A stretch of 64,000 bases of DNA from Planctomycetota bacterium (GCA_024275565.1 JAJRYY010000009.1:6756-70755); one strand, 5' to 3'. Counted from the first letter of the stretch, positions 37,370 through 44,175 are shown. Notes: generated from the letters alone by a model not told the origin. Numbers and translations: made by a program.

Positions 37370-37521
37370 GCACCAGGGGCAGTATTTCCAAAAAAAATGA
37401 GAAAGCCGGCTCGCGATCAAACATCGCGAGCCGGCTTCTTCTCTATAAAAAAACGTAACCGGACCCCACATCCCAGCGACAGGACATCCATCCAGATACG
37501 CAACGAGCGCCGAATCGATAA

Positions 37522-38679: not shown

Positions 38680-39025
38680 ACATCCCGCACGAACTTCCGA
38701 CCTATATCAACCGTCCAACAATGAACGCAAAATCTAAAATCGCAGGTTGAAGGGTGACCCTCACGATCTGTCCCGAGTTCGCAACGGAGTCGAGTTTAAG
38801 ACGCACCAGCAACCACCTCGACCTTATACTTCCGGAAGGTGTCTCGATACCCGGTTACAGGGCGTCGATGGTGCTGGCACGTCGGTATCCACCCGACTTC
38901 AAAGATACTTACACGGCGCCAACGATGTACCATGCAATCGAAACCGCATGACGCACCACCGATGGCTGACAAAATCGCTAAATCACTCCCAAAACCTGCT
39001 TTTCAAAGCGACTTTTCAGCCGCTC

Positions 39026-39095
39026 AAGAGGGGCGGGATTCGAACCCGCTACCGCACGGTTAAACCGTGTGCTCTTACCAGATGAGCTACCCAGG
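39026..39095 (-). tRNA. tRNA-like gene (possible tRNA pseudogene) with canonical D- and T-arms but non-pairing acceptor stem
   Basis: The reverse complement reads ...TAGCTCATCTGGTAAGAGC-A-CACGGTTTAACCGTGCG-GTA-GCGGGTTCGAATCCCGC-CCCTCTTG. The T-loop is TTCGAAT. The anticodon region contains TTTAA, giving either a UUA or UAA anticodon depending on how the loop is drawn. Confidence 0.45.
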
Positions 39096-39178
39096 TGGTC
39101 TGGACAGGAATCGAACCTGCTTCACTGTAAGGTGACAGCCCTTAACAGGCTGCGCTCGACCATCGAGCATCCAGAACC
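39096..39178 (-). tRNA. class-II-like tRNA (15-nt variable arm), anticodon loop TGTTAAG, isotype unresolved
   Basis: The reverse complement reads GGTTCTGG-AT-GCTCGATGGTCGAGC-G-CAGCC-TGTTAAG-GGCTG-TCACCTTACAGTGAA-GCAGGTTCGATTCCTGT-CCAGACC-A. The acceptor stem pairs only with one bulge or mismatch. Confidence 0.55.
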
Positions 39179-39383
39179 GATATTGTTTCCGATGCCGTTC
39201 ACGGTACACGCCACAGATAAATCCAGCACACAAATCCACCGGACCCAAAACGCGCCGCCGGCACAACATCGGTTTGACCCAATCTATACACCTTCCACAT
39301 CTATACATCTTCCACGCAACCCGCACATCGCGGATGTCAATGGACCTGTAACCCGTCAGAGTCACACGATAGTCACACGATAA

Positions 39384-40400
39384 TTACGCGATAGATATAA
39401 CGATGGCGCGACTGTCCTCACGTTCCGTTTCGATCTCAACGTCAAGAAACTTACCAATCAGATCAACATGCGTTTCAGAATGACGAGACAATCCCGTAGA
39501 CCGAAACGTTCCAGACCCCGCGATCGCCATCGGCAGCAACAACTGATCCGTCAGATACTCTCCAACCGGAGCAGATGACCGAAGATAACGCTGACACTGC
39601 TGAACCGCATGGGAAGCGACAGCCTCAGCAGCTCGACCAACCTCACCGAAACCCGTAAAAACTTCCGTCACGTTCTCATACCCAAGCTCGATCGTCACAA
39701 TATTTCCAGGACCCACAGGGCGATCGATCTCAACAACTTCCGCTTCACCCTCATCCCAACCGAGACGCTTCCGCATGACGCGAACTTCCCGATCAGCGAT
39801 CTTCCGATCAAGACTCGATACAACCGCCCGCCCACATCGCCGCACCAGATCGCCACGCTCCACAATGCTGATCCCACCGAAAGATTCAGCAGGTGTCACA
39901 TCCACAACCATACGTCCCCCACCCGCCGGATAGAACCCATACCTCTCAAGGGTCACCGATACCTTCGGACCCATCCGATTCACAAGCGGAAGGTACGACC
40001 GCTCAAGAAAGTCAAACGGAGGTGCATACGGATTATGCGTCCCGCCCTCAAGCACGATCCGACTCGGCGCTTTCGCAAGTGCAAGCGGAAGCAAAATCGT
40101 CTGCAGCACAAGCGTCGTACTACCCGCCGTCCCAATACTGAACGTATAATCACCACCCACAGCCACACCCGGAACAAACACCAGCTCGGTCGAACCCATC
40201 TCATCGCCCTCGACCTTACACCGCCCAATCTCAGCAGCAGCACGGACAGCCGTAAGGTGTTGTCGCAGCAGTCCGGGCTTCCTCCGCTTCGCACGAATAT
40301 TCTCAATTCGAAACGCCCTACCCGTAACGATCGACAGCGCAAGGGACGATCGCAATATCTGCCCCCCGCCTTCACAAAATGAACCATCAACCGTCAACAT
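39384..40400 (-). CDS. rtcA: RNA 3'-terminal phosphate cyclase
   Basis: MLTVDGSFCEGGGQILRSSLALSIVTGRAFRIENIRAKRRKPGL is the RtcA N-terminal signature. Confidence 0.85.
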   Translation of the reverse strand: MLTVDGSFCEGGGQILRSSLALSIVTGRAFRIENIRAKRRKPGLLRQHLTAVRAAAEIGRCKVEGDEMGSTELVFVPGVAVGGDYTFSIGTAGSTTLVLQTILLPLALAKAPSRIVLEGGTHNPYAPPFDFLERSYLPLVNRMGPKVSVTLERYGFYPAGGGRMVVDVTPAESFGGISIVERGDLVRRCGRAVVSSLDRKIADREVRVMRKRLGWDEGEAEVVEIDRPVGPGNIVTIELGYENVTEVFTGFGEVGRAAEAVASHAVQQCQRYLRSSAPVGEYLTDQLLLPMAIAGSGTFRSTGLSRHSETHVDLIGKFLDVEIETEREDSRAIVISIA

Positions 40401-40484
40401 CACAACAACCTCCTGGAAAGAACAATTCATCGACAGGGCGACCATGTCTTCCTAACAACAGGGCGCCCATATCTTCTTCAACAG

Positions 40485-40675
40485 TGTGGCCCATGTCTTC
40501 AGACATGGGGGAGCCGAAGACCACCCGCACAGCAACCCAAACTCTAGCCAAGCCTCAGGGTCCACTGTACGGACCACCATCACAACATAAAACGGGTCCC
40601 ACCGGCGACTCGTCCGCCAGCGTGCTTCATCACAGCATAAAACGGGTGCCACTGGCGGCTTGTCCGCCAGTGTCT
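40485..40675. repeat. REP-like element cluster in the rtcB-rtcA intergenic spacer
   Basis: Contains a CATGTCTTCAGACATG-GGGGAGCCGAAGA hairpin, a GGTCCACTGTACGGACC palindrome, and two copies of GGGT(G/C)CCAC(T/C)GGCG...CCGCCAG(T/C)G. Confidence 0.6.
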
Positions 40676-40730
40676 ATAACAAACACAACCATCGCATCCC
40701 ACACAGCACCCCAGACACACCACAACCACC

Positions 40731-42242
40731 TCAATCATCCGCCGCAGAAGCATCCTTAATCACAAAACGCGCCTTCAACCGTGCAACCTCAGAAGCCAGC
40801 CCGGCAAGCTTCACAGAACGAAGCACCTCATCAAAATCCTTATAGACAGCCGGGGCTTCATCCATCGGATAATTCCGGCAATTCGTCATAATATCGCACG
40901 TCTCGAACGACGCATTGATCGACTTCTGATCCAGCGACCGGATCGCGGCTTTGCGACCCATCACGCGTCCGGCACCATGATTCACACTGTAACAACTAAT
41001 CTCCGCACCCTTATCCGCCACCATGACAGCCGACCCCCGCTGCGGATCACCCGGCAGCAAAATAGGATGCCCGCTCTTGGCAAACGGCGTATCCTTCAAC
41101 GCATAATGACCACCAGGAAACGCCCGGGTCGCACCCTTACGCATCACCCAGGAAGGTCGGTTATTCACAATCTCCTTCCGCGCAATATTATGACTGATGA
41201 GGTAAACCAGCTCACCAGACACACCCGGAATGACCTCCTGAAAAGCCTCCAGCACAAGCGCGTTAATCAGCAGATGATTCACAGTCGCAAAATTCGCTCC
41301 CATGGACATATCATCGATATAAGCATTCGCCTCAGGCGTCCCAAGCGGTGCATAACACAAATGCCTGTCATTCCCAGGATACTCTATACCCCACCGGTCA
41401 AACTTCCGCTGCAACGCCTGAAACTGTCCCATAGCAAGGTTGTGACCAAATCCACGCGATCCACAGTGCGAGAGAAACGCGACATGCTTATCCCGCAGCC
41501 CGAAGGTCTCAGCACAGTGCTTCGCCCGGCTGTCATCACCAACCTCCACCACCTCACACTCGCCAAAATGATTACCGCCACCATACGACCCAAGCTGCGT
41601 AACCTTCTCCCTGAACTTCGGAAACGCCCCGGAGTGCAGTAGCCAGTCGAGTCGAGCACCCAGCGCATCCCGGGTTTCATCGTGTCCCAGGTGGAAAGAG
41701 TCCTCACAACGCGTCGCCCACCGTGCAGGGACACCCATCGCCTCACAAACCCCCTGCGACGCACCTTCGATCGCAACGCGTCTCCCCAGCGGCTCGCCCA
41801 CATGCCTCGATTTTCGGACGCTGCGCTGGCCCCGCCCCGCTCCCGTAGGCGTCCGCTCACAAATCGCCTCAATCACCGCCCGCCGGGTACGACGATCCAG
41901 AACCTCATTTTCAGGCAAATCAAGCTGCAATAAGCTCATGGAACACTTGATATCCACGCCTACGGGACCGGGGTAGATGTGGGAGGCGGAGGCCATCACG
42001 CAGCCAATGGGGGCGCCATACCCGATATGGGCATCGGGGTTCAGTACCACTTCATCCACGCCGGGGGCGAGGCGGGCATTGACCACCTGCTGCAAAGTGG
42101 CGTCATCAAACGTATCAAGGATAGCCTCGGTCCCAATAACCGTTATTGGCTTCACCTTACCGTCAGCCACCGGCAAAATAGACGTTGCCGCACCCGTACT
42201 CACCAGTCTGTTCGTATGCTTCGCCATCAGAATACTCCTCAC
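40731..42242 (-). CDS. rtcB: RNA-splicing ligase RtcB
   Basis: 503 aa with the RtcB His/Cys metal-site motifs and the VNHGAGR block. Confidence 0.9.
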   Translation of the reverse strand: MRSILMAKHTNRLVSTGAATSILPVADGKVKPITVIGTEAILDTFDDATLQQVVNARLAPGVDEVVLNPDAHIGYGAPIGCVMASASHIYPGPVGVDIKCSMSLLQLDLPENEVLDRRTRRAVIEAICERTPTGAGRGQRSVRKSRHVGEPLGRRVAIEGASQGVCEAMGVPARWATRCEDSFHLGHDETRDALGARLDWLLHSGAFPKFREKVTQLGSYGGGNHFGECEVVEVGDDSRAKHCAETFGLRDKHVAFLSHCGSRGFGHNLAMGQFQALQRKFDRWGIEYPGNDRHLCYAPLGTPEANAYIDDMSMGANFATVNHLLINALVLEAFQEVIPGVSGELVYLISHNIARKEIVNNRPSWVMRKGATRAFPGGHYALKDTPFAKSGHPILLPGDPQRGSAVMVADKGAEISCYSVNHGAGRVMGRKAAIRSLDQKSINASFETCDIMTNCRNYPMDEAPAVYKDFDEVLRSVKLAGLASEVARLKARFVIKDASAADD

Positions 42243-42265
42243 GTTCCATGTGTACTGATAACCAT

Positions 42266-42282
42266 AAGCACCCTGCGTGCCA
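42266..42282 (-). promoter_or_regulatory. sigma-54 (-24/-12) promoter for rtcBA
   Basis: The minus strand reads TGGCACGcaggGTGCT, with a perfect -24 TGGCACG and correct spacing to a GC at -12. It lies 25-40 bp upstream of the rtcB start and next to the divergent rtcR. Confidence 0.5.
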
Positions 42283-42378
42283 GTTAGTCAAGTGTTGATT
42301 TATGGTGAAAAACGCCTGTGTGGTGCTGCGGATTTCCGAAAAGTTGATAAATCTGGATAGTTTTTTATAATCCTCGCT

Positions 42379-43986
42379 ATGTTGAACGTCGCAATCGGAA
42401 TGCTGGGCATGATGCGGGATCGCGGGGATGGACCGGATCGGTGGTCGCAATGGCGCCCTACTGTGTCTTTGTGTCAGCACGAGGATCTGTTGATCAGCCG
42501 TCTCGAACTGCTCGTCGAGACAGGATCGATGGATCTGGCGAATCGGGTGGCAGCCGACGTTCGCTCGGTATCCCCCGAGACCGAAGTTCGCCTCCATATG
42601 ATCGAATTTGGCGATCCATGGGACTTCGAGAATGTCTACAGCGTCCTGCACGGGTTTGCCCTGGATTACCAGTTTGACACCGATCAGGAGCGGTATCTGA
42701 TTCATGTGACCACGGGTACCCATGTCGCTCAAATCTGCACCTACCTGCTGACGGAATCCCGGCATCTTCCCGGGCGGTTGATTCAGACGGCGCCTCCGAA
42801 GCGGCGTAGTTCTGGGCAGGCTGGCCGGTATACGATTATTGATCTGGATTTGTCGAAATACGATCGAATCGCGCAGCGTTTTGAAAGCGAGCAGCGCGAA
42901 GGATCTGAATTCCTGAAGGCTGGGATTCAGACGCGTAATGTTGCTTTTAATCGCATGATTGACGAGATCGAATATGTGGCGATCCACTCGCGGGCGCCGA
43001 TCCTGCTGACGGGTCCGACGGGGGCGGGGAAGTCGAGTCTCGCCCGTCGTATCTTTGATCTGCGGAAGTTGCGGAACAACGTTGCGGGTCGTTTTGTGGA
43101 GGTCAACTGTGCGACCTTGCGTGGTGACGGAGCGATGTCTGCTCTTTTTGGTCATACGCGTGGATCGTTCACGGGGGCTGCTCAGGATCGGGCTGGATTG
43201 CTGAAGGAAGCCCACCTTGGGATTCTGTTTCTTGATGAGGTTGGCGAGCTGGGTCTGGATGAACAGGCGATGCTCTTGCGGGCTGTCGAAGAGCATCGTT
43301 TTCTTCCGCTTGGATCGGACAAGGAGGTCAGCAGTGATTTTCAGCTGATCTGCGGTACGAATCGCGACCTCGGGGCTGATGTCCGGTCGGGTCGATTTCG
43401 CAACGATCTGTTGTCCCGGATCAACCTCTGGGCATTTGAACTGCCGGGGTTGGCGCAGCGGCGTGAGGATATTGAACCGAACGTTCATTTTTCTCTTGAG
43501 CAGGTCACGGTTGCGACGGGCCATCGTTTTCGGTTCAACAAGGAGGCATTGGATATGTTTCTGCGGTTTGCGGAATGTCCGGATACCCCCTGGACCGGGA
43601 ATTTTCGAGACCTCGACGCTGCCATAGCCCGGATGGCGACCTTGGCGCCGTCCGGGAGGATTACGGAGGAGGCGGTGGATCGTGAGATTGATCGCCTCAA
43701 GCGGTCGTGGCGTGATTCTGGAACGTCTGCTTCGGTCGATGGTACGCATGTTCTGGAAGCCCTGCTGGGAGACAGGCTGGACGACCTTGACGAATTCGAC
43801 AGGGTTCAACTCGAGCGTGTGGTGCTGGTCTGTATGGAGTCGCGGTCCTTGTCGGTGGCTGGCCGTCGTTTGTTCGCTGCCTCAAGGCGTAAGCGGAAGG
43901 CGCCGAACGATGCGGATCGCCTTCGGAAGTATTTGTCGCGGTATCGACTGGACTGGTCCATGGTGAAAGACGCTCTTCCCGGGTGA
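42379..43986 (+). CDS. rtcR: sigma-54-dependent transcriptional activator RtcR (CARF-AAA+-HTH)
   Basis: Walker A LLTGPTGAGKSSLARRIF and the GAFTGA-like region are present. There is an N-terminal CARF-like domain and a C-terminal HTH. Confidence 0.85.
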   Translation: MLNVAIGMLGMMRDRGDGPDRWSQWRPTVSLCQHEDLLISRLELLVETGSMDLANRVAADVRSVSPETEVRLHMIEFGDPWDFENVYSVLHGFALDYQFDTDQERYLIHVTTGTHVAQICTYLLTESRHLPGRLIQTAPPKRRSSGQAGRYTIIDLDLSKYDRIAQRFESEQREGSEFLKAGIQTRNVAFNRMIDEIEYVAIHSRAPILLTGPTGAGKSSLARRIFDLRKLRNNVAGRFVEVNCATLRGDGAMSALFGHTRGSFTGAAQDRAGLLKEAHLGILFLDEVGELGLDEQAMLLRAVEEHRFLPLGSDKEVSSDFQLICGTNRDLGADVRSGRFRNDLLSRINLWAFELPGLAQRREDIEPNVHFSLEQVTVATGHRFRFNKEALDMFLRFAECPDTPWTGNFRDLDAAIARMATLAPSGRITEEAVDREIDRLKRSWRDSGTSASVDGTHVLEALLGDRLDDLDEFDRVQLERVVLVCMESRSLSVAGRRLFAASRRKRKAPNDADRLRKYLSRYRLDWSMVKDALPG

Positions 43987-43989
43987 GTT

Positions 43990-44175
43990 GAGAAATGGTC
44001 CGTACAGTGGGCCCTGCGTCGCGGGACAGGAGATGGTCCGCACAGCGGACCCTGCATCACGGTGGTCCATGTGTCGTGGGATTCGTAATGGTCTGTACAG
44101 TGGACCCTGCGTCACGGTGGACCCTGCGTCACTTTGGAACGGCCACAGTCGGGGGCGGCTGTGCTACATATGCCC
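43990..44175. repeat. three tandem ~55-bp repeats each containing the hairpin palindrome GGTCCGTACAGTGGACC
   Basis: atggtccgtacagtgggccctgcgtc..., atggtccgcacagcggaccctgcatc... and atggtctgtacagtggaccctgcgtc... The same palindrome occurs once at 40566-40590. Confidence 0.6.

Follow-up and report, generated by a model that had tools for sequence, protein, structure and literature searches.

In Escherichia coli, the RNA-repair genes rtcB and rtcA follow a sigma-54 promoter in that order, with the regulator gene rtcR divergent from them, and to our knowledge this operon holds neither a scaffold gene nor a non-coding RNA. In the Salmonella operon rsr-yrlB-yrlA-rtcB-rtcA, damaged tRNAs induce expression via the CARF domain of RtcR (PMC7790460; PMC4201824). 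A different companion was described in Pelobacter carbinolicus in 2012, where a 'mutant tRNA' (Pcar_R0061) lies in a cluster ordered rtcR / mutant tRNA - stomatin-like gene - rtcA1 - rtcB and was proposed as a substrate or guide for the Rtc enzymes (PMC3543383). This arrangement was generalised by Burroughs and Aravind in 2016 as the b7a-tRNA (a tRNA associated with band 7), parallel to Ro/YrlA and, in the terms in which it is cited in bioRxiv 10.1101/312249, not experimentally validated. A 2026 survey also places an SPFH gene inside the Pseudomonas aeruginosa rtc locus, which in strain PA14 holds PaFlo8 (PMC13086221). Here, we analyse an rtc locus in a 64,000-nt stretch of a Planctomycetota bacterium (GCA_024275565.1 JAJRYY010000009.1:6756-70755; hereafter, the window), in which rtcR, rtcB and rtcA are accompanied by two tandem tRNA-like units and a gene for a Band-7/SPFH (stomatin-like) protein.

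With the E. coli operon, the window locus shares the order of rtcR, promoter and rtcB-rtcA, while its RtcB has 498 aa, compared to the short (~400 aa) type in E. coli. As in Salmonella, RtcR/sigma-54 control is combined with a putative scaffold protein, a tRNA-mimicking non-coding RNA, RtcB and RtcA; however, the Salmonella scaffold is Ro (TROVE + vWA) and its RNA a permuted tRNA-like Y RNA, whereas the window has a Band-7 protein and cloverleaves of normal order. The Pelobacter element resembles that of the window in its cloverleaf kept by reciprocal mutations, its loss of U33, its shortened acceptor end and the stomatin-like gene directly downstream, but consists of one unit only, lies between rtcR and the stomatin-like gene and was described in one genome (PMC3543383). 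The b7a-tRNA, so far as the secondary account describes it, is likewise a tRNA-like gene by Band-7 and RtcB genes, is interchangeable with Rsr/YrlA and is a computational prediction. The window differs from it in having a tandem pair whose first unit carries a long variable arm, in the position of the module at the 3' end of the operon (rtcB-rtcA-RNA-Band-7) and not directly after the promoter, and in a ~260-nt structured domain after the mimic, the newness of which with respect to the 2016 description is provisional. The Band-7/tRNA-mimic linkage has thus been known since 2012, and the window locus adds an example of the predicted module; the tandem mimic, the 3'-end placement and the structured domain (the last if not already described) may be new.

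The conserved partner of the mimic is the Band-7 gene, not rtcA. We compared the window with 74 loci from many phyla collected by RtcA similarity (L001–L074), with an independent sample of 80 metagenome loci anchored on Band-7 (65 with enough upstream sequence), and with six loci found via close protein homologues (L155–L160). A Band-7 homologue lies inside the rtc locus in 19 of the 74 RtcA-anchored loci, usually in the order rtcR / tRNA-like - Band-7 - rtcA - rtcB, with L060 sharing the order of the window. A covariance model (R1) built from 14 tRNA-like elements recovered elements missed by ARAGORN, bringing the Band-7 loci that carry one to 17 of 19. Among the metagenome loci, a same-strand tRNA-like element was present 254–599 nt (median ~313) before the Band-7 start in 61/65, and the third sample had a mimic upstream of Band-7 in all six; in the window, the distance from the end of unit 2 to the Band-7 ATG, on the same strand, is 368 nt. 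The element retains its position upstream of Band-7 with either order of rtcA and rtcB, and also in loci lacking a nearby rtc gene. The neighbours of the 80 metagenome Band-7 genes include RtcB in 22 loci, RtcA in two and RtcR in none; Hen1 adjoins the module in L104, and other loci have unrelated neighbours. The Band-7 module is, therefore, an accessory that accompanies RNA-repair enzymes in many cases but not in all. With a covarying cloverleaf, a same-strand Band-7 neighbour and an RNA-ligase association (rtcB and rtcA in the unit), the window module is very probably of the Band-7 plus b7a-tRNA kind. A first-pass annotation of this DNA, made from the sequence by a model, had singled out the physical linkage of tRNA genes to the operon and proposed a comparison across related genomes, in which absence of the linkage would have counted against it. 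The linkage does recur in relatives, but the partner is the Band-7 gene (outside the interval reported by that annotation) and not rtcA, and it had been noted in 2012.

Table 1. Features of the rtc locus and its Band-7 module (positions in the window)
Feature	Position	Strand	Basis or remark
rtcR	42379..43986	+	CARF-like RtcR domain and sigma-54 AAA+ activator; divergent from rtcB
Sigma-54 (-24/-12) promoter-like site TGGCACGCAGGGTGCT	42267..42282	-	Predicted; exact pattern match
rtcB, RNA ligase	40731..42227	-	Open reading frame opens at GTG 42242; likely start ATG 42227
rtcB-rtcA spacer	40401..40730	-	Local repeats and palindromes
rtcA, RNA 3'-phosphate cyclase	39384..40400	-	Open reading frame to 40445; likely start ATG 40400
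Long G.U-rich hairpin, 5' of tRNA-like unit 1	39189..39272	-	Sequence conservation
tRNA-like unit 1	39097..39178	-	ARAGORN; tRNA-Sec model, below gathering score
tRNA-like unit 2, b7a-tRNA type	39024..39096	-	Rfam tRNA; covariance model R1
Small hairpin GCGGC-UGAAAA-GUCGC, abutting unit 2	39008..39023	-	Compensatory changes in relatives
Structured RNA domain (P1, P2, P3)	38742..38999	-	RNAalifold and covariation
Band-7/SPFH (stomatin-like, 'slipin') gene, 377 aa	37522..38655	-	Pfam Band_7
Strong intrinsic terminator	37402..37438	-	16-bp stem, then T-run

Both tRNA-like units are tRNA mimics and not decoding tRNAs, given their short acceptor stems, a G33 or a 5-nt loop, and anticodons that differ between orthologous loci. 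They begin 205 nt past the rtcA stop codon on the same strand and abut each other (0–1 nt between them). Unit 1, labelled 'tRNA-Stop UUA' by ARAGORN, folds with a bulged acceptor stem of 5 bp, a D stem of the same length closed by a tiny loop, a long variable arm and a canonical T arm; its 7-nt anticodon loop (UGUUAAG) has G33 in place of U33. Unit 2 has a 3-bp acceptor stem, canonical D and T arms and a 5-nt anticodon loop, and scores 40.6 bits against Rfam tRNA (model positions 5–66 only) and 63.6 bits against R1. Comparison with orthologous loci (L001, L056, L075 and L076; 71–83% protein identity) revealed covariation in the anticodon stem, variable arm and T stem of unit 1, whose anticodon loop reads UGUUAAG, CUAAGAA, UUGAAGG or UUCAGGU by locus ('anticodon' UUA, AAG, GAA or CAG). 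In the same comparison, the anticodon loop of unit 2 measures 5, 7, 6 or 7 nt and its acceptor stem 3–6 bp. Covariation in 18 family members extends to all four arms; their acceptor stem has only 3–5 bp, and the anticodon loop varies in length (5–10 nt) as well as in sequence. The consensus fold of the tandem is two separate, normal-order cloverleaves.

Neither unit has the 7-bp acceptor stem with a free CCA end of a canonical tRNA (5 bp with a bulge in unit 1, which abuts unit 2, and 3 bp in unit 2), nor a 7-nt loop with U33 and a conserved anticodon. Against the Rfam tRNA-Sec model (RF01852), unit 1 reached 31.6 bits, under the gathering score of 47, and has UUA at the anticodon position where UCA is required. 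We rejected a suppressor, selenocysteine or spare tRNA on the basis of the sub-gathering score, the missing U33 and the variable anticodon. The first-pass annotation, which had two tRNA-like genes following rtcA immediately, was thus right on the strand and on the lack of an obvious terminator, but the distance is 205 nt and the units are mimics rather than tRNA genes. The metagenome contigs held no match to an exact DNA pattern made for the junction of the two units. Two hairpins flank the tandem. The long one on the 5' side, a predicted fold, is nearly invariant in the window, L075, L001, L056 and L076, with no covariation among these five sequences, and is a possible processing stem; the small one abutting unit 2 recurs in relatives with compensatory changes.

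A folded domain of ~260 nt occupies much of the ~370-nt region from unit 2 to the Band-7 ATG, and its 3' end lies ~85 nt before the start codon. Its closing helix, P1, pairs GCAGGUU..GGGAGUG with CACCC..AACCUGC and is accompanied by a hairpin (P2) and a long arm (P3) bearing the conserved GGAUACCG and CUCAAGC..UCCG loops. The RNAalifold consensus of six sequences has 69 pairs, of which 43 are changed on both sides, with 90.6% of cells paired (33–46% in slid controls) and none of 500 shuffles reaching the observed value. Using 15 sequences, including Victivallales, 48 pairs were obtained, 37 changed on both sides, with 90.5% paired versus 37–44% when slid. The alignments hold related sequences and were themselves the source of the structures; the shuffle counts can therefore not be read as probabilities, and the slid controls and out-of-sample matches are the stronger arguments. 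The latter come from a covariance model of the P3 arm only (R2, trained on five sequences), which finds this arm at the expected place in 11 non-training loci (L078, L080, L014, L046, L081 and L155–L160); a twelfth match, in L010, is marginal. Counterparts of the domain lie at 2998–3282 in L075 and 11402–11685 in L001.

In a separate soil clade (L090–L154), the Band-7 leader has an unrelated sequence and the same topology (49 sequences, 94.9% paired versus 25–50% slid). The window group is out of reach of an nhmmer profile made from this soil-group leader, and the case for homology of the two groups is therefore one of architecture, not sequence. Leaders of mixed origin (delta-proteobacterial, Victivallales and others) are too divergent and gave no consensus fold, with only GGAUACCG, CUCAAG..CUCCGC and the closing helix visible as common. 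Rfam 15 returned no match to the structured domain. There is no conserved open reading frame in the gap before Band-7, where the longest ones look random, and a small open reading frame in this ~350-nt gap was rejected for lack of conservation. Together, the mimics and the ~260-nt domain form a conserved upstream RNA of the Band-7 gene.

The Band-7 protein itself matches Pfam Band_7 (4e-30) and stomatin in the PDB (1.5e-26), and its ATG is preceded by GGAGG at 10 nt. It has >6,600 homologues at E <= 1e-20, named 'slipin family', with homologues in the rtc loci of many phyla. In an AlphaFold2 model (pLDDT 84), the protein comprises three repeats rich in beta structure, an SPFH alpha/beta domain and a long helix; no membrane anchor is evident. 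The repeats occupy residues 1–185 in tandem, each with the motif E.ALLFKDG...L.PG.H.FW, and stand in place of the membrane anchor. While the C-terminal two thirds match the folds of stomatin, HflK and prohibitin, the only full-length fold matches are to major vault protein (E 1e-10 to 2e-8), with low TM-scores (~0.4). The closest solved relatives are 16-mer stomatin cages, which by analogy suggests that the Band-7 protein could be a soluble ring- or cage-forming scaffold. The eukaryotic vault combines major vault protein with vault RNA and the TROVE protein TEP1. The window module would resemble it in manner of working only: both would pair a small non-coding RNA with a protein of beta repeats, SPFH shoulder and long helix, but no sequence relationship past the SPFH fold was seen, the TM-score is ~0.4, and a Band-7 cage is vault-like by analogy only.

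In loci without Band-7, the same position is taken by an Rsr gene (TROVE + vWA_Ro60) and then YrlA-type RNAs, as identified using Pfam and Rfam; as a control, true YrlA was found above the gathering score in L015 and L041. The 41 RtcA-anchored loci with rtcR comprise 17 with Band-7, 17 with Rsr, seven with neither and none with both. Band-7 plus mimic and Ro (Rsr) plus Y RNA are thus mutually exclusive in RtcR-containing loci. No Rsr-like match was found anywhere in the window at E <= 1.

The rtc genes of the window were identified by Pfam and NCBIfam profiles. RtcR matches RtcR (PF06956, 1.6e-80), Sigma54_activat (PF00158, 6e-46) and the equivalog NF038308 at 775 bits (cut-off 650); the rtcB product matches RtcB (E = 4e-99), with orthologues of 66–86% identity in related loci; and the rtcA product matches RTC (1e-75) and NF003246 at 434 bits (cut-off 352). 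The likely ATG of rtcB is preceded by GAGGAG, and that of rtcA has AGGAGG in front and is where homologue alignments begin. rtcB and rtcA share one strand, divergent from rtcR, as the first-pass annotation had it. Its near-consensus -24/-12 promoter 25–40 bp upstream of rtcB also agrees with our analysis: TGGCACGcaggGTGCT at 42267-42282 (minus strand), inside the 136-bp rtcR-rtcB intergenic region, has GG-N10-GC spacing, is the single exact match to this pattern within the 64-kb window and lies 24 nt before the GTG and 39 nt before the likely ATG of rtcB. In many related loci, an equivalent motif adjoins rtcR, and we infer that the site functions as a sigma-54 promoter. On the opposite strand, a near-consensus sigma-70-type promoter (TTGATA-16-TATAAT, 11/12 positions, 42344–42371) ends 8 nt before the rtcR ATG, a spacing that suggests a leaderless rtcR mRNA or one with a very short leader.

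In many relatives (e.g., L016, L006, L011, L014 and L046), the sigma-54 motif lies upstream of mimic, Band-7, rtcA and rtcB, so that RtcR-driven transcription there must read through the mimic. The module of the window lies last in its operon, and between rtcA and the tRNA-like units there is a single terminator-like match, a weak one with a 6-bp stem (39251–39265) within the long conserved hairpin. The T-run of this match is found in the window only and not in relatives, and in the region such matches are, in total, as many as expected by chance. On these grounds, we rejected termination between rtcA and the mimics, in line with the earlier observation of no obvious terminator there. The only strong terminator seen lies ~85 nt past the Band-7 stop codon (Table 1) and is likely the end of the transcription unit. 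Given that the module of relatives lies between the sigma-54 promoter and rtcA/rtcB, and that the only strong terminator of the window follows Band-7, co-transcription of the mimics and Band-7 from the sigma-54 promoter is plausible; it is the most economical reading of the sequence and a probable one. The first-pass annotation had allowed that the tRNA-like genes could be co-transcribed with the repair enzymes. Their operon membership is supported by the order in relatives and by the terminators, while the transcript itself is predicted; its interval, which stopped at 39025, cuts off the remainder of a unit extending to 37522 (the Band-7 gene). Overall, we favour, with some reserve, the view that the locus is an RtcR/sigma-54-controlled RNA-repair operon of a 'Band-7 type', comprising rtcB, rtcA, a composite non-coding RNA region, Band-7 and a terminator.

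We propose a working model in which damaged tRNAs would activate RtcR, and the sigma-54 promoter would drive one long transcript of rtcB, rtcA, the RNA region and Band-7. The tRNA-like part would probably be excised or stabilised by tRNA-processing enzymes. The tRNA-like RNA and an oligomeric Band-7 ring or cage could then form a ribonucleoprotein serving as scaffold or cofactor in the handling of broken tRNAs by RtcB and RtcA; Band-7 and mimic would thereby fill the slot held by Ro (Rsr) and the tRNA-like Y RNA YrlA in Salmonella-type rtc operons. As a whole (operon, mimics and Band-7 ribonucleoprotein), this model appears to us somewhat better than an even bet. Its parts differ: binding of the mimic RNA by Band-7 in a ribonucleoprotein could about equally well hold or fail, and a direct role in tRNA repair by RtcB and RtcA is a tentative suggestion that we would sooner doubt than assert. 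Several points weigh against the model. No RNA-binding domain was recognised in the Band-7 protein, the N-terminal part of which consists of extra beta repeats. Many Band-7 plus mimic modules have no rtc gene within 6 kb, so the tie of module function to RtcB/RtcA is not a strict one. A separate internal promoter for the RNA and Band-7 part may have escaped our promoter scan, which models those of Planctomycetota poorly. Finally, the structured domain abuts the ribosome-binding region of Band-7, which would fit a cis-regulatory leader equally well. More speculatively, and in our estimation rather unlikely, the ~0.5-kb composite RNA might be the partner or possible cargo of a soluble, vault-like Band-7 cage, or the domain a riboswitch-like sensor of tRNA integrity that gates Band-7.

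The alternative to which we give the most weight, while still considering it unlikely, is that the units and the domain are the 5' leader of the Band-7 mRNA, controlling its translation or stability, and not a free RNA partner; such control might sense intact or broken tRNA or involve cutting by RNase P or Z. As would befit a leader, the RNA is in every case found immediately upstream of the Band-7 start, in the same orientation and at the conserved distance given above, with the structured domain ending close to the start codon, and it accompanies Band-7 even without rtc genes. In the RNAalifold prediction, the Shine-Dalgarno region also pairs weakly with the start region, but this pairing has little covariation, and no terminator/anti-terminator alternative was seen in the leader. 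The canonical D and T arms that have been kept suggest recognition by tRNA-binding proteins and not merely a regulatory switch, and a leader is in any case compatible with the working model, since the RNA could be processed out of it. We consider it improbable that the mimics are a decoy or bait, either inhibiting anticodon nucleases or being cleaved to 2',3'-cyclic-phosphate fragments that feed the CARF domain of RtcR. Hypervariable anticodon loops among close relatives, on a fold otherwise kept, would suit this role, as would the tRNA gene arrays held in the same operons of relatives, and a sponge role has been suggested for cyanobacterial tRNA arrays co-regulated with rtcB (PMC8421152). However, loops of 5–6 nt (window unit 2, L001, L009 and L046) mimic no real anticodon loop, a decoy role would leave unexplained why the mimics are strictly coupled to Band-7 and not to RtcR or RtcB, and the YrlA of Salmonella is not cleaved by the nuclease (PMC7790460).

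Three further readings carry very little weight. A pair of functional tRNAs replacing damaged ones, with unit 1 as ochre suppressor or spare tRNA(UUA) and unit 2 as another spare, agrees with the ARAGORN call (anticodon UUA), with the score of unit 2 above the Rfam tRNA gathering score and with the canonical look of the operon arrays in relatives. It is nonetheless highly improbable: unit 1 lacks U33 and a CCA context, has a bulged 5-bp acceptor stem, abuts unit 2 and varies in anticodon between orthologous loci, and unit 2, matching model positions 5–66 only, combines a 5-nt loop with an acceptor stem of 3 bp. Weak Rfam YrlA (RF02553) matches across the junction of the two units, of 25.6 bits (window) and 27.7 bits (L076), suggested a YrlA-type, Ro-binding Y RNA, whose permuted tRNA-like domain would be made up of the unit 1 T arm, a hairpin and the unit 2 D arm. 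These scores fall far under the gathering score of 69, the junction hairpin (CCAG-ACCAC-CUGG) is not conserved in L001, L075 and L076, the window has no Rsr/TROVE (Ro) gene, and the consensus fold is two separate cloverleaves; we rejected this identity, which retains next to no probability. Equally remote is the idea that the units are functionless, as decayed tRNA pseudogenes or remnants of mobile-element attachment sites. Repeats do surround the window locus and the rtcB-rtcA content is variable in relatives, but compensatory changes keep all four arms across phyla and the position relative to Band-7 is fixed in >80 loci, so covariation disfavours such decay.

The rtcB-rtcA spacer measures ~330 bp with the likely rtcA start at 40400, and the 285 bp given in the first-pass annotation holds only with a start at 40445. 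It is filled with repeats, as that annotation had said (a ~50-nt unit x2, a 25-nt unit x2.8 and one 21-nt palindrome), but their identity as genome-wide REP elements is only putative. The 21-nt palindrome, TGGTCCGTACAGTGGACCCTG, has four copies, one in the spacer (40556–40576) and three just past rtcR (43996–44016, 44034–44054 and 44089–44109), all flanking rtc genes, with none elsewhere in the 64-kb window. The rtcB-rtcA junction is a variable slot, which in relatives holds about 0.2–3.6 kb; in L001 (6668–10001), L156 (2412–4045) and L157 (493–4109) it contains extra genes, namely DUF5677, a probable N6-adenine methyltransferase and small unknown open reading frames. Short tandem repeats are also present at or just past the rtcA stop codon of the window (39282–39315 and 39360–39394; a 17-nt unit x2 and an 11-nt unit x3.2), upstream of the long conserved hairpin.

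Relatives of the window additionally carry arrays of 3–11 well-formed tRNA genes within the rtc operon, placed after the sigma-54 motif and before rtcB or Band-7. These were noted in L001 (4387–4961), L056 (2088–2564), L155 (874–1409), L044 (7542–8049), L046 (8239–8481), L048 (8061–8662), L049 (7631–8231), L007 (6684–9718) and L080 (714–1925); the window has no such array. The arrayed genes include Gln, Arg, Leu, His, Asn, Pro, Tyr and other tRNAs, several 'tRNA-Leu' being of class-I length (73–77 nt), and could be spare or decoy tRNAs. In cyanobacteria, extra tRNA genes in L-arrays are linked to, or co-induced with, rtcB under translational stress (PMC8421152). The window's relatives likewise have extra tRNA genes with rtcB, as arrays inside the rtc operon, but the cyanobacterial ones are regulated by a repressor and direct repeats, not by RtcR/sigma-54. 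The closest relatives also have a tRNA-His(GUG)-like gene 3' of Band-7 (L001 13068–13140, L056 10529–10601, L155 7215–7287, L156 7214–7286 and L157 7217–7289), where the window has the terminator instead.

RtcB/RtcA operons are widespread, and their Ro/Y-RNA arm has been studied; the Band-7/mimic arm is equally common in our sample (17 versus 17 RtcR loci), and the literature we searched holds no experimental study of it. The window locus is a clean example with a defined promoter and terminator (both predicted), and offers experimental handles in the strict linkage of Band-7 and mimic, the exclusivity with Ro, the tandem variant and the covariation-supported domain. If either the composite-RNA or the sensor reading is true, the structured domain would represent a widespread RNA family that is new and missing from Rfam, and the vault-like reading, if true, would make the Band-7 module a bacterial ribonucleoprotein compartment that captures and repairs broken tRNAs.

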